Positions 17,801 to 24,022 of a stretch of DNA of 64,000 bases are shown here, piece after piece. The position numbers and the translations under genes were made by a program. The notes under the pieces were generated by a model that saw only the letters and a list, made by a program, of their open reading frames with translations, did no database searches and was not told the DNA's origin. Position 1 is the first letter of the stretch. Each line of letters opens with the position of its first letter. Source of the stretch: Candidatus Babelota bacterium (lineage in GTDB: Bacteria; Babelota; Babeliae; Babelales; JAHIUU01); contig JAHIUU010000003.1 in assembly GCA_018817025.1 (NCBI GenBank), positions 16,854 through 80,853 on the forward strand. Direction: 5' to 3'.

Positions 17801-19327
17801 TTATTTGTGTTGTAGGCCGCTTGTCGGGAAGTACGAGAGTAGGTACTTGATCTCTTCATCACCAAATCGGAGGCCAGCGCCGAAGAATGGTGACGAGTTA
17901 CCCTTGCTGCAGATGTCATCAAAACCAAACGTTGTATAAACATTTCTCATGAAGAAGAGTCGATTGATCCACTTGACGTGTGGTCGATTACTGTCAATGC
18001 GGTTGGCCCCATTGAAATCAAACGCTTCAAGTGTTGTAACCCAGTGCATTTTGTTAGTGCGCAATGGAACGTAATAGTCCACACCGGCTCCAAATGTACT
18101 TTCAAATAATCCAACTCGTAGGGCGATTCGATCGAACCGTTTTCCAAATTGGAATCCAAACAGAATGTCATTTTTTATTTGCAGAACCTCTTCTTCTCGA
18201 TCGGCAAGATCCATTCTTTCATATTGCGTTGTAAGATCATTGGTTTTTAAAAGATTGTTGTGTGAATCAAAGCGCTTGCGATATTTAACCGTCTTTTTCA
18301 CGCTGCCATGCTCATCAGAGACCAGTTGGAGTTTATAAAAGTAATCGCTATATGGTCTGAGGCTGGCTTCAAAATATCCCTTAGAATTATCTGTCTTGAA
18401 AAGTGATTCAGAGTGCATATCGAGTAGAATGTCTATCGACTCAGCTTTGCCAACCATCTTGCTGAACCCTTTGACCGCTCCCTTAAGATCGCCATACGTT
18501 TCATCTTCATTAATCAATTTACCCAAAACCCCCTGGCCGGCGTTAAGCTTTTCCATAACTTTTTCCGCTTCATCAAACGTACCTTCTACCTTTTTGCTTG
18601 CGGCGGCCAGGTGTGGCATGGTGTCGTCAGCAAAGGCGACTTTGATGCCGTGGAAATCGTCTTTTATGGAAGGAACCGCTTTGACTAAGTGGTTTGCTGT
18701 TGATCGGAAATCTTTGATCATTCCGTTTAGATTATTTTCATTTTTTGCCAACGTTCGTTCTAGGACGTGAGAGAAATTTGCCATGCGATCTGATGCTTTT
18801 GCAACACTATTAAGTGCGAGCTTGAGATTCTCTTCACCTTTGCGTGTGCCAAATGTGTTTTTGAATGAAGATACCACGTCATGGATGCCACCGGCGATCT
18901 CTTTAAACTGTTCAAGCAGATCCCCAACGCTTGTTGGTGCTCGACCAGGCATCGCAAGCACAGATCCGGGTGGCAACGAACCAGTTGTTGGATCGCCAGG
19001 ATCAACATCGATATGTTTTGTTCCAATTAAACCTTCTTGCTGAACGGTCGCATATGCATTACGAGCAAGTTTATATCGCTTGTGAACTTTTAAGAGAACT
19101 TCTGCTTTACCGCCTTCAAGCAAATTTATTTTCTCAACCCATCCAATTTCAACACCAGCGATTTTGACTGGTGATTTTTCATCAAGACCACCGGTATCAT
19201 CAAAGTAGGTTTTATAGGAGTAGTACTGTCGTTGGTCGAGACGGATCGCCCCGATGTTCAGGCTCAAGTAAAAGAAAATGCCGATCGCAACGATAACAAA
19301 TATTCCGACGCGTGTTTCTGTTTTCAC
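17801..19327 (-). CDS. MCE/MlaD-domain protein with a long C-terminal extension
   Basis: GTG start 9 nt after the gspK stop. N-terminal TM 'VGIFVIVAIGIFFYL', MCE core 'SPVKIAGVEIGWVEKINLL..GKAEVLLKV', and 'GQGVLGKLINEDETYGDL'. The last ~200 aa are rich in alternating-hydrophobic strands. Confidence 0.8.
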   Translation of the reverse strand: MKTETRVGIFVIVAIGIFFYLSLNIGAIRLDQRQYYSYKTYFDDTGGLDEKSPVKIAGVEIGWVEKINLLEGGKAEVLLKVHKRYKLARNAYATVQQEGLIGTKHIDVDPGDPTTGSLPPGSVLAMPGRAPTSVGDLLEQFKEIAGGIHDVVSSFKNTFGTRKGEENLKLALNSVAKASDRMANFSHVLERTLAKNENNLNGMIKDFRSTANHLVKAVPSIKDDFHGIKVAFADDTMPHLAAASKKVEGTFDEAEKVMEKLNAGQGVLGKLINEDETYGDLKGAVKGFSKMVGKAESIDILLDMHSESLFKTDNSKGYFEASLRPYSDYFYKLQLVSDEHGSVKKTVKYRKRFDSHNNLLKTNDLTTQYERMDLADREEEVLQIKNDILFGFQFGKRFDRIALRVGLFESTFGAGVDYYVPLRTNKMHWVTTLEAFDFNGANRIDSNRPHVKWINRLFFMRNVYTTFGFDDICSKGNSSPFFGAGLRFGDEEIKYLLSYFPTSGLQHK

Positions 19328-19336
19328 ATTGTACCC

Positions 19337-20467
19337 TTAAATCCAATATAATCTTACTATTCTAAACGTTTTAGCTTGATCTTTGGCGCTGTCTTTGTTT
19401 TCCTGTTTTGGTTTTTCGTCGGGAGTCTTATTTTTTCCCTGTTCTTTTTCCTGGTGGACTTTTTCGATTATTGCTAGTAATCGCTGTTCGACCTTTCCGA
19501 CTTTCCCAGAAGATAGCACAGAATAGACCTTCGGCTCAAACTTTGAGGAGAAAATTTTCAAATCTTTAATTTTAGCGGTGTTTTTCGCTTCATAGAGCGG
19601 ATTAACCATGTTCCAGTATTTTTCCGTATTTTGGTCGGTTCCTGGATCAAAGCTTTTGATAAACTCTTTAAATTTTTCTTTACGAGTTTGCGCGTCATAA
19701 GCGTGTGGTCTTCGGAGGCCGAGCATGCCGCATAATGCATCTGAAAGAAAAAGTGCTTCAAGTGTTTCGCTGTTTGACCAGATTGTAAAAATATCTTGTA
19801 CGGTAAGCGAGTTGTTCGGTTTTGCAGCTTTCACTTTTATTGTGCGTTGTGGCGGCTCGTAAAAGAGTTCAGAGACGCTTGAATCGGTATCTTCATACAG
19901 CTGCGATATGTCCTCTATTTTTTTATTTCGTTTTGTTAGATATTTTGTGAGGTTCTTGAGAAATTGGCCTGCGCTTTTTTCTTTGCCTCGAAAGGTGAGG
20001 CGCTCAAGAAATTTTTTGTAAATTGGTTTAAATTCCTGTTTTTGAAAATCGAATGCTTCATTAATATTTATTTTCCCGTTCTCACAGGAGATGCAGAACT
20101 TCAGTTCTCCATCGATGCCGTCAATGGCTTTGTCGAGTGAAAACAGTTGCCAGCGATTCATGTGAGGGAGTACTCGTTGTAGAAAGTCGTTAAATTCTTG
20201 TTTGTTTTTTTTCGCAAGCTCTTCTTGACTGAGTTTTTTTTCTGTTGAGAACTCAGTTTTTTTAAACGACTTTTTTTTGACGGTTAGCTGAGCGATTGCC
20301 AAGTTGATACCACCAAGAGCGAGCATCTCGGCATGCTCTCGATCAACCATTGCACGATCGAAATGCCAACCGACATATACGGTGCGTAGGAGCTGATGGG
20401 TCAGAATCGTGACTAGCGATAGAATTGATAGTGCAAATAGGAGCACAAAAGCCTTTGGTTTTCTCAT
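19337..20467 (-). CDS. gspK: Type II secretion minor pseudopilin GspK-like
   Basis: Hydrophobic N-terminus 'AFVLLFALSILSLVTILTHQLL', 'REHAEMLALGGINLAIAQL', and the 'ENGKININEAF' motif. It sits after gspJ. Confidence 0.65.
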   Translation of the reverse strand: MRKPKAFVLLFALSILSLVTILTHQLLRTVYVGWHFDRAMVDREHAEMLALGGINLAIAQLTVKKKSFKKTEFSTEKKLSQEELAKKNKQEFNDFLQRVLPHMNRWQLFSLDKAIDGIDGELKFCISCENGKININEAFDFQKQEFKPIYKKFLERLTFRGKEKSAGQFLKNLTKYLTKRNKKIEDISQLYEDTDSSVSELFYEPPQRTIKVKAAKPNNSLTVQDIFTIWSNSETLEALFLSDALCGMLGLRRPHAYDAQTRKEKFKEFIKSFDPGTDQNTEKYWNMVNPLYEAKNTAKIKDLKIFSSKFEPKVYSVLSSGKVGKVEQRLLAIIEKVHQEKEQGKNKTPDEKPKQENKDSAKDQAKTFRIVRLYWI

Positions 20468-22763: not shown

Positions 22764-22798
22764 AATGATCTCCTTTCGTTTTGTTAGTTTTGTTATTT

Positions 22799-24022
22799 CT
22801 AAATTCCCATTCCCTCACTCATTTGCATAATTGGTAAGAATATTGCCAAAATAATAAAGAGTACAATAAGGCCCATGACGATTGTCATAATAGGCGTGAT
22901 TTTGCTTGTCATGCTTTCTGTTATCTCGGTTAATTCTGTATCATAATCGTTCCCAACGGTCAAAAGCATTTGGGCTAGCTGTCCCGACTCTTCTCCTGTG
23001 CTTATCATATAACTGGCGATTGCCGGGAACATGTTCGTTTTTTTCAAATATTTTGCGATCTTGCCTTCTTTGATTATGCTGTCTCGTGCTTCGAGTAGTT
23101 TTTGTGTTAACACTTCGTTATCAATAATATTGCATACGATGTCGAGCGCCTCAGCTAAATTGACCCCGCTTTCTAAAAGCATACCGAGTGTTTTGCTAAA
23201 TTGTACGACCGCTTTTGTTTTTGAGAAGTACGATACAAGGGGAAGTCTTAAAATTATCTCGTCGAATTTATATTGACCCCTCGTGGTTTTTTTCCAGCGC
23301 GTAAATGCTATGACTATGCCCAAAAAGAGTATCGAAATAAGAACGAGGTTGTTCATGAGTATATCTGACATGCCGATCAATAGTTGTGTGGGGCCGGGTA
23401 GCTCTTGTCCCATCTGAGCAAACATGTCTTTAATTCGAGGCACAAGAAATGTCAGGACGCCCACGACGACCAGAACCGCAAACGAGAGCATCGCGATTGG
23501 ATAGGCAAGAGCTTTTCGAATTTTTTTTCTTGTCTCTTCAGTTCTTTCTAGATATGTCGTTAGGCGGTTCAAAATTACTTCTAGCTTGCCACTTGCTTCA
23601 CCTGCTCTGACGAGTTGGACATACACGTTTGGAAAGATTTTAGGATATTTTTTCATCTCTGAAGCGATCGACTCTCCAGCTTTAATGCCATCTTTGATGT
23701 GTATCAAAACACGTTTAAAGACGCCTTCGAATTGTTCAGTCAGAAGTTCGATTGCTTGGAGAAGAGGGACTCCCGACTTGAGCAGAACTCCAAGTTGCTT
23801 GGTGAATAGGACCTTTGTTCTAATATCAACCTTTTTTTGGAAAAACCTTTTCCAGAACGGTCCCTCGAGTTTTGCAGCAGAGGTTTCTTCGATGTTGGTC
23901 GGCATAAGCCCTTGGCCTCGCAGGATAGTTATAGCGTCCTGTTTTGAGGCGGCATCGATGGTGCCGGTTATTTTTTTGCCGCGCCTGTTAAAAGAATCGT
24001 ATTGGTACAAGGGCATGAACAT
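22799..24022 (-). CDS. gspF: Type II secretion / type IV pilus platform protein GspF/PilC
   Basis: 'YQYDSFNRRGKKITGTIDAASKQDAITILRGQGLMP'. It has a duplicated T2SSF domain with three TM segments and is 407 aa. Confidence 0.85.
   Translation of the reverse strand: MFMPLYQYDSFNRRGKKITGTIDAASKQDAITILRGQGLMPTNIEETSAAKLEGPFWKRFFQKKVDIRTKVLFTKQLGVLLKSGVPLLQAIELLTEQFEGVFKRVLIHIKDGIKAGESIASEMKKYPKIFPNVYVQLVRAGEASGKLEVILNRLTTYLERTEETRKKIRKALAYPIAMLSFAVLVVVGVLTFLVPRIKDMFAQMGQELPGPTQLLIGMSDILMNNLVLISILFLGIVIAFTRWKKTTRGQYKFDEIILRLPLVSYFSKTKAVVQFSKTLGMLLESGVNLAEALDIVCNIIDNEVLTQKLLEARDSIIKEGKIAKYLKKTNMFPAIASYMISTGEESGQLAQMLLTVGNDYDTELTEITESMTSKITPIMTIVMGLIVLFIILAIFLPIMQMSEGMGI

Follow-up and report, generated by a model that had tools for sequence, protein, structure and literature searches.

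The gspFGHIJK-mlaD locus

Dependentiae (formerly TM6) are obligate intracellular parasites of protists. The present analysis deals with a stretch of 64,000 nucleotides (nt) from a Candidatus Babelota bacterium (assembly GCA_018817025.1, contig JAHIUU010000003.1, positions 16,854 to 80,853), hereafter the window, whose G+C content of around 40%, together with the named homologues, assigns it to Candidatus Dependentiae/Babeliales. It is centred on an operon in which type II secretion system (T2SS) genes are followed by a gene for a long MCE protein of the MlaD type. On the minus strand, gspF-G-H-I-J-K are arranged head to tail (24022..19337) and are followed by an open reading frame (ORF) of 508 amino acids (aa), referred to here as mlaD (17801..19327 (-)). 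This is the last conserved gene of the operon, and its product was characterised with Pfam, NCBIfam, AlphaFold2 (AF2) and Foldseek. The gspK-mlaD junction reads ...TAT TGG ATT TAA GGGTACAAT GTG AAA..., with a spacer of 9 nt (19328..19336 (-)) and a Shine-Dalgarno-like AAGGG that straddles the gspK stop codon. An earlier annotation made from the letters alone (the sequence-only reading) had placed the ORF 9 nt after gspK on the same strand, and this is exact. The GTG start codon agrees with the N-termini of 52 homologues (consensus MKxETRVGIF). All the junctions in the gsp-mlaD operon are tight, ranging from an overlap of 32 nt to a gap of 35 nt.

The first gene of the operon, gspF (22799..24022 (-); 407 aa), matches Pfam T2SSF with two repeats (184 bits) and the NCBIfam model GspF TIGR02120 (E=5e-106), the latter with 355 bits, under the equivalog cutoff of 424. 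It is followed by gspG, encoding the major pseudopilin (22323..22763 (-); 146 aa), which exceeds the cutoff of TIGR01710 (102.5 bits against 88.85) and also matches Pfam T2SSG and N_methyl. Three minor pseudopilin genes come next. The GspH-like protein (21768..22319 (-); 183 aa) reaches 22.7 bits with N_methyl, above the cutoff of 21.2, and shows weak GspH/GspG matches in NCBIfam. The GspI-like protein (21351..21755 (-); 134 aa) gives weak N_methyl and ComGF/PilV matches only and was assigned from its position and size; its gene shares the 32 nt overlap with the gene of the GspJ-like protein (20471..21382 (-); 303 aa), which was assigned from its position and matches N_methyl with E=3.8e-4.

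The tip pseudopilin GspK (19337..20467 (-); 376 aa) is a particular case, as sequence models nearly fail on it. The NCBIfam GspK model matches the N-terminus alone (E=3e-4), no Pfam domain is precomputed for the protein, and a profile built from 40 sequences of the GspK-like family retrieves nothing among Pfam or PDB sequences; the gene is labelled 'hypothetical' in every source. An AF2 model was obtained from an alignment of 55 homologues, with a predicted local distance difference test (pLDDT) of 84.7 and a predicted template modelling score (pTM) of 0.80. When this model was compared with the PDB by Foldseek, the only significant matches were XcpX/GspK structures: 9a1f_T (E=1.4e-5), 5vtm_X, 6utu_C and 3ci0_K, with probabilities of 0.99-1.00. 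Judged by the fold of this model, the product is a genuine GspK, and the pseudopilin set from G to K would therefore be complete. For annotation, this means that a genuine GspK can stand among 'hypothetical' genes, overlooked by current sequence models.

The locus thus resembles a canonical T2SS operon (gspC-O) in its gspF-G-H-I-J-K order, in a GspG that passes the equivalog threshold and in the XcpX/GspK fold. However, whereas GspL and GspM come after GspK in the canonical operon, an unrelated lipid-transport protein occupies that slot here.

Domain organisation of the 508-aa protein

Precomputed Pfam annotation of a protein with 100% identity (P0001) gives three domains in the 508-aa protein: PF02470 MlaD, PF28544 Helical_needle and PF27164 Aq_493_lipo. 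Residues 3-24 (19256..19321 (-)) form a hydrophobic helix in the AF2 model that aligns with the transmembrane (TM) segment of E. coli MlaD and corresponds to an inner-membrane anchor. The MCE domain, residues 35-111 (18995..19225 (-)), matches PF02470 with E=1.7e-16 and 60.6 bits against a gathering cutoff of 25.1, and it covers profile positions 2-81 of 81. The N-terminal 120 residues are 31% identical to E. coli MlaD, and the motif EGLIGTKH (residues 98-105) is aligned with SGLLGEQY of that protein; from published MlaD structures, we take these residues to line the pore. Among 53 homologues L100 and G102 never vary, conservation of I101 is 90% or more, and the TM segment and the MCE region are the best-conserved parts of the whole protein.

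The region between residues 134 and 294 (18446..18928 (-)), which includes GQGVLGKLINEDETYGDL, corresponds to the helical 'needle' of PF28544 and is modelled by AF2 as helices of low pLDDT. Such low values are expected when one monomer of an oligomeric tube is modelled. In a comparison of the family profile with PDB sequences, the mycobacterial Mce1B (8fed_B) was matched over residues 6-287 (E=7e-20).

The C-terminal part, residues 298-488 (17864..18436 (-)), is covered by PF27164 and modelled as a 12-strand beta-barrel with a 27-residue insertion at 350-376. All 12 predicted strands are amphipathic, with alternating hydrophobic and polar faces. The even number of strands implies that the chain ends back in the periplasm, which is consistent with its entry from the needle. 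A short C-terminal helix (490-499 in the AF2 model) and tail complete the protein (residues 489-508; 17804..17863 (-)), with D490 and K494 invariant and Y495 nearly so. Foldseek assigns the N-terminal part to Mce1B, as the top match, and to MlaD. The C-terminal part is matched to OmpU, to the 12-strand autotransporter translocators Hbp, NalP and EspP, to FapF, the N-terminal domain of OprF (OprF-N), Omp33 and OpcA, and also to TMB10, a designed 10-strand barrel. No likeness to GspL or GspM was found by Pfam, NCBIfam, PDB-profile or Foldseek comparisons, in which all the matches are MCE proteins or outer-membrane barrels.

The description given in the sequence-only reading, namely a MlaD-like N-terminus, a helical middle and a beta-rich C-terminus, is borne out by Pfam, by the AF2 model and by the strand alternation. 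A helical or disordered C-terminal region had been envisaged as a possible objection; instead, the AF2 monomer gives 12 strands there, with pLDDT values of 70-88.

Conservation of the gspK-mlaD linkage

The locus was scanned in 80 Dependentiae loci, taking one genome per species; 79 of them are informative, and the eightieth is cut at the gene. In all 79, from distinct Dependentiae species genomes, gspK lies directly upstream of mlaD, with a median gap of 20 nt (range -32 to 137). The complete gspF-K block is present wherever the available flank allows, down to 30% MlaD identity, and the independent gene calls of a Babeliales metagenome-assembled genome (MAG) give an identical gene order. On the other side of mlaD the situation is different: the gene directly downstream belongs to 39 families in 60 loci and is mostly on the opposite strand, so that the gspK-mlaD adjacency does not reflect general synteny. 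The linkage is far beyond chance. It is also kept at two loci, L060 (8855-11593) and L062 (8878-11593), where gspK and mlaD are adjacent (gaps of 15 and 10 nt) although the preceding 9 kb contain no gspF-J genes. The gene that comes before the pair in L060 has the opposite orientation, so that gspK-mlaD constitutes a two-gene unit there.

Conservation of the adjacency among relatives had been proposed as a check in the sequence-only reading, with its absence from all of them as a refuting outcome; the adjacency turns out to be phylum-wide, and this objection clearly falls. A functional link to type II secretion is for this reason conceivable. No report tying MlaD or MCE proteins to gsp operons was retrieved by a literature search, and a search on Aq_493, PF27164 and PF28544 gave nothing relevant. 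What appears to be new is the conserved linkage within the operon together with the uncoupling from mlaEF; both are robust.

Many of the MAGs with the gspF-K-mlaD block (L001, L003-L005, L052 and others) are deposited as 'uncultured Pseudomonadota', one as Alteromonas naphthalenivorans, and one cluster member is labelled Epsilonproteobacteria. These labels are probably taxonomic mislabels or the result of bin contamination.

Relation to known MCE systems

The architecture described above has a precedent. In MlaD of Veillonella parvula, a TM anchor and a MCE domain are followed by a helix some 150 residues long and by a C-terminal beta-barrel, which fractionates with the outer membrane, and a trans-envelope bridge working without MlaA and MlaC has been proposed for it (Grasekamp et al. 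2023, Nat Commun, PMC10665443). Supplementary Data 1 of that study covers ten Dependentiae genomes and Babela massiliensis. MlaD is present in 11/11 of them and flagged as BetaBarrel, ten genomes having a single copy and one having two entries, of which one is partial, and it is the sole MCE protein listed in nearly every Dependentiae genome. MlaE is found in 10/11, far away from mlaD (by 13 and 51 gene numbers where both genes share a contig), whereas MlaA, B and C are absent from all the genomes tabled (PMC10665443). Two of the loci analysed here (L017 and L029) stem from genomes of that table, and their MlaDs are 52-53% identical to the window protein. The 508-aa protein is the Dependentiae orthologue of this 'long MlaD' class, whose architecture is published and whose Dependentiae members are catalogued. 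The sequence-only reading had suggested a MCE bridge into the outer membrane and called it undescribed: the predicted 12-strand amphipathic barrel and the outer-membrane barrels retrieved by Foldseek speak for the bridge, whereas the claim of novelty falls with the study of Grasekamp et al. (2023, PMC10665443).

The protein of the window and that of V. parvula are both single polypeptides, in which TM anchor and MCE domain precede a helical stretch of roughly 150 residues and a barrel at the C-terminus; MlaA, B and C are missing in V. parvula as in the Dependentiae genomes tabled. The two proteins differ in size (419 aa in V. parvula, 508 aa here), in the barrel (10 strands there, 12 predicted strands and a short C-terminal helix here) and in the genomic context, which is a mlaEFD operon by tolC/tamB in V. 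parvula and the 3' end of gspFGHIJK here. The two barrels are likened by their architecture and not by direct sequence comparison. With E. coli MlaD, known from MlaFEDB and MlaD structures (PDB 6XBD, 6ZY2, 5UW2), the common features are the TM anchor and the MCE domain at the identity given above, with a pore loop GLLG in E. coli and GLIG here. Nevertheless, the E. coli protein has 183 aa and only a short helix, without needle or barrel, and it passes the lipid to periplasmic MlaC and to outer-membrane MlaA-OmpC. The best match among solved structures is mycobacterial Mce1 (PDB 8FED/8FEF), which also has a MCE ring and a long helical needle; Mce1, however, is a heterohexamer of six distinct MCE proteins, each giving one strand to a small terminal barrel (PMC10665443), whereas one gene encodes a complete barrel per subunit here.

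Homologues of the C-terminal region are also found in other phyla. When residues 290-508 were compared by phmmer with 1.84 billion representative proteins, 599 were retrieved, and the domain is C-terminal in 150/150 of the matches listed; named members come from Desulfurispira natronophila (WP_183728141.1) and from 'Deltaproteobacteria', Nitrospirae and Pseudomonadota MAGs. The four homologues with MlaD, Helical_needle and Aq_493_lipo domains examined outside Dependentiae are all encoded by the third gene of a mlaE (PF02405)-ABC ATPase-mlaD operon (ABC, ATP-binding cassette). They carry these three Pfam domains in an identical order and measure 516-578 aa, and the window protein is 26-27% identical, end to end, to the MlaDs of D. 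natronophila and of a 'Deltaproteobacteria' MAG. The difference lies in the neighbourhood: in those operons mlaD comes directly after mlaE and the ABC ATPase gene, while in Dependentiae neither gene is found within 10 kb and gspK stands in their place.

The secretin and the assembly platform

The sole other part of T2SS or type IV pilus type within the window is a secretin gene located about 15 kb from the gsp operon (790..2349 (+); 519 aa as called on the record), whose product matches Pfam Secretin (131.8 bits) and the N0 domain of GspD. Its scores with NCBIfam are 186 bits for PilQ and 155 bits for GspD, each of them under its own cutoff. Two secretin copies have been described in each TM6 genome (Yeoh et al.).

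The remaining T2SS genes gspC, D, E, L, M and O are absent from the gsp operon locus. Pfam and NCBIfam scans detected neither gspL/M/C nor pilM/N/O(P) at this locus or beside the secretin gene, and gspL/M were not found in the window, in the 80 related loci with their 10-kb flanks or in about 10 kb past each window end. The sequence-only reading was right in stating that neither gspL/M nor a mlaE/mlaF set is adjacent; none was found in the window, in the 80 loci or in the flanks. The idea that PilM/N/O encoded beside the secretin could supply the L/M function was rejected, as the secretin gene is preceded only by dtd and by the gene of a 163-aa TM protein without family (306-2349 (+) for this group of genes). 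A lone 167-aa TM protein (40444..40947 (+)), whose gene is flanked by rpsA and a PfkB kinase gene and has neither pilM nor pilO alongside, gives a weak PilN match below threshold (PF05137, E=0.0055). It is a possible remnant or divergent component of an assembly platform, and the sole candidate for such a role in the sequence examined.

Interpretation and alternative explanations

The explanation that we consider probable is that the 508-aa protein is a trans-envelope lipid conduit whose MlaE/F partners are encoded elsewhere and which is co-transcribed with the pseudopilus genes, without being a substitute for GspL/M. MlaD of V. parvula and the mycobacterial Mce1 serve as models for a proposed mechanism. 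The N-terminal helix would anchor the protein in the inner membrane, and the MCE domains would assemble into a hexameric ring with EGLIG as hydrophobic pore loop. The helices, of about 160 residues, would bundle into a needle across the periplasm, and the 12-strand C-terminal barrel would sit in the outer membrane. The outcome would be a continuous lipid conduit in which neither the MlaC shuttle nor MlaA is needed. Its most likely docking partners are a MlaE permease and an ABC ATPase whose genes lie at other places in these scattered, reduced genomes, and the conduit would plausibly serve the movement of phospholipids between the membranes or the uptake of host lipids. As to its origin, mlaD would have been split from mlaEF in an ancestor of Dependentiae and would have come to lie, by capture, at the 3' end of gspFGHIJK. 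Since then it would have been co-transcribed with gspK, with probable translational coupling, and would depend on gsp transcription. The linkage would in this way reflect the shared expression of two envelope-spanning machines, and it could make sense as a module for secreting hydrolases and importing lipid or as simple promoter dependence. Hydrolases are the typical cargo of such a secretion system, and expressing the conduit together with it would be biologically sensible. A direct mechanical role of mlaD in secretion may exist, the data speaking neither for it nor against it.

Several observations weigh against this explanation. The match to NCBIfam MlaD TIGR04430 (residues 2-122) reaches 88.8 bits and stays below the equivalog cutoff of 135, and the helical region of about 160 aa is modelled with low confidence. 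What we infer comprises the hexamer, outer-membrane insertion, the nature of the substrate and the direction in which it is transported, as well as the partnership with MlaE and an ATPase. Searches with E. coli MlaE (tblastn, phmmer) and with a hidden Markov model of three sequences found no mlaE in the window, in the 80 loci with 10-kb flanks or in about 10 kb past each window end. No MlaF is clustered with mlaD or mlaE in the Dependentiae genomes of Supplementary Data 1 in PMC10665443. The MlaE/F partnership, which is most likely, draws on the presence/absence table published there (PMC10665443). The assembly platform of the T2SS is unaccounted for, with no canonical GspL/M/C or PilM/N/O in the sequence examined. 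Finally, the phylum-wide linkage, surviving in L060 and L062, is stronger than a neutral explanation demands.

In the same stretches as those searched for mlaE, nothing specific to MlaF was detected either: only generic ABC ATPase genes came to light, and for one of them the best match is LolD. This orphan ABC ATPase gene (35600-36307 (-)) reaches 210.8 bits with LolD against a cutoff of 307.75 and has no permease gene adjoining; the gene beside it, read by eye, is presumably murJ. Such an orphan indicates that genes of ABC subunits are scattered in this genome, which bears on the fact that MlaF was not seen.

The strongest competitor, possible but in our opinion rather doubtful, sees in the adjacency a frozen accident devoid of function: following one rearrangement in an ancestor, mlaD would have lost its own promoter and become inseparable from gspK. 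The 9-nt gap leaves no room for a promoter, mlaD is always the final gene of the operon while the flank beyond it rearranges freely, and in the split operons it stays with the gene that supplies its transcription. This account overlaps with the conduit explanation rather than excluding it, and retention of the pair at 30% identity amid shuffled neighbours suggests that there has been selection for co-expression at least. A lipid bridge that works without ATP, passive like those of AsmA/TamB type, with MlaE/F abandoned and MlaE serving another purpose, appears very unlikely. It would agree with a mlaD unlinked from mlaE at every locus examined and with the lack of a clustered MlaF-like ATPase noted above. 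Nevertheless, the maintenance of MlaE in 10 of 11 reduced genomes in which MlaD is nearly always the lone MCE protein argues for a continued partnership, and the general scattering of ABC subunit genes, as in the LolD-like case, would account for an ATPase encoded apart. The N-terminal TM segment and the MCE region contact MlaE in solved MlaFEDB structures such as 6XBD, and it is precisely these MlaE-contacting parts that are most conserved.

It is also unlikely, in our judgement, that the MCE protein works as a component of the T2SS or pseudopilus machine in Dependentiae, either as a trans-envelope scaffold replacing the GspC/L/M platform or as a conduit physically coupled during assembly to the GspK-tipped pseudopilus. 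The invariable gspK-MCE adjacency, with gaps very short or overlapping, the K-MCE pair kept at the two loci without gspF-J upstream, the lack of recognisable gspL/M/C or pilM/N/O at the gsp operon or beside the secretin, and the separation of mlaD from mlaE, unique to Dependentiae, would all fit such a role. However, the protein has no similarity to GspL, GspM or GspC in sequence or fold and no cytoplasmic domain able to hold GspE, and its three-domain architecture and lipid pore loop are common to homologues encoded in plain mlaEFD operons elsewhere. Besides, short gaps run through the whole operon and are not peculiar to the K-MCE junction, physical coupling cannot be shown from gene order alone, and Dependentiae genomes retain MlaE (PMC10665443). 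The co-option of a MCE ring into the pseudopilus, put forward as an option in the sequence-only reading, finds no direct support: the protein lacks GspL/GspM similarity, its homologues in other phyla belong to mlaEFD operons, and MlaE is reported in Dependentiae. Still more speculative, and to be regarded as a long shot, is the proposal that the GspK-tipped pseudopilus and the MlaD needle-barrel form one coupled envelope machine across Dependentiae. The MCE hexamer could then provide a minimal T2SS with its missing scaffold in the periplasm; alternatively, a conduit importing host lipid could be gated or positioned by the assembly of the pseudopilus. If it were true, such a machine would explain why the gspK-mlaD unit is kept phylum-wide even where gspF-J are elsewhere.

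Other features of the window

Divergent from gspF there is a gene encoding a 319-aa protein (24129..25088 (+)), found by tblastn in the same divergent position in most of the loci with enough flank; a second plus-strand coordinate pair, 25090-26499, is given beside it. The protein has an N-terminal signal or TM segment and 19-42% identity across Dependentiae loci, and it belongs to no Pfam or NCBIfam family. Given its kept position, the gene would be part of the conserved block, and its product could be an unrecognised T2SS component or substrate. At the opposite end, just past the mlaD stop codon, there is a promoter-like site (17733..17760 (-); TTGACA-16-TAAAAT), defined only by a match to 11 of the 12 consensus positions. 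It lies ahead of a non-conserved gene for a 239-aa protein without tblastn match in any of the 80 loci.

An insertion sequence IS200-like Y1 transposase (PF01797, E=1.9e-21) is encoded at 4406-4822 (+), where its neighbours are an ACPS gene and one for a HerA-like ATPase. A signal peptide is present in a 423-aa protein (29945-31216 (-)) that ends in ...GGQIAFNF, which resembles an outer-membrane beta-signal; it has no match in Pfam or NCBIfam, and its gene adjoins that of a 923-aa protein without Pfam match (31245-34016 (-)). A 575-aa leucine-rich-repeat protein with signal peptide (43528-45255 (+); LRR_14, E=4.8e-10, 39.2 bits against a cutoff of 40) is of the eukaryote-like interaction type reported for TM6 parasites. 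Between 51054 and 63789 there is a large cluster of lipopolysaccharide/O-antigen type. It begins with a MsbA-like exporter (TIGR02203, 437 bits, cutoff 602) and continues with glycosyltransferases and a DegT aminotransferase, according to the gene calls and precomputed Pfam domains of locus L087; past the window end, the same locus contains NeuB/CTP-transferase genes and a second ABC exporter. The TM6 envelope has been described as degenerate (Yeoh et al.), and compared with that description the genome of the window looks comparatively well equipped.

Implications for the biology of Dependentiae

Published accounts describe Dependentiae as unable to synthesise fatty acids and lipids and suggest that host lipids are used instead; the way in which they acquire them is considered an open question (PMC4776705, PMC6561590). 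A role of the long MlaD in the acquisition or distribution of lipids is therefore plausible, and a conduit from the inner membrane to the outer one made of a single polypeptide is an obvious candidate for lipid traffic in these organisms. Its phylum-wide link to a pseudopilus operon leads to the testable hypothesis that, during infection, the systems for secretion and for lipid transport are expressed together or coupled. In the study of MCE proteins, Dependentiae provide a natural case of a barrel-bearing MlaD genetically uncoupled from MlaEF, which bears on the need for an ABC engine. The gspK-mlaD arrangement is a genomic-organisation variant of a known system, and as such it offers a lead on lipid acquisition and on minimal secretion machinery in this phylum.

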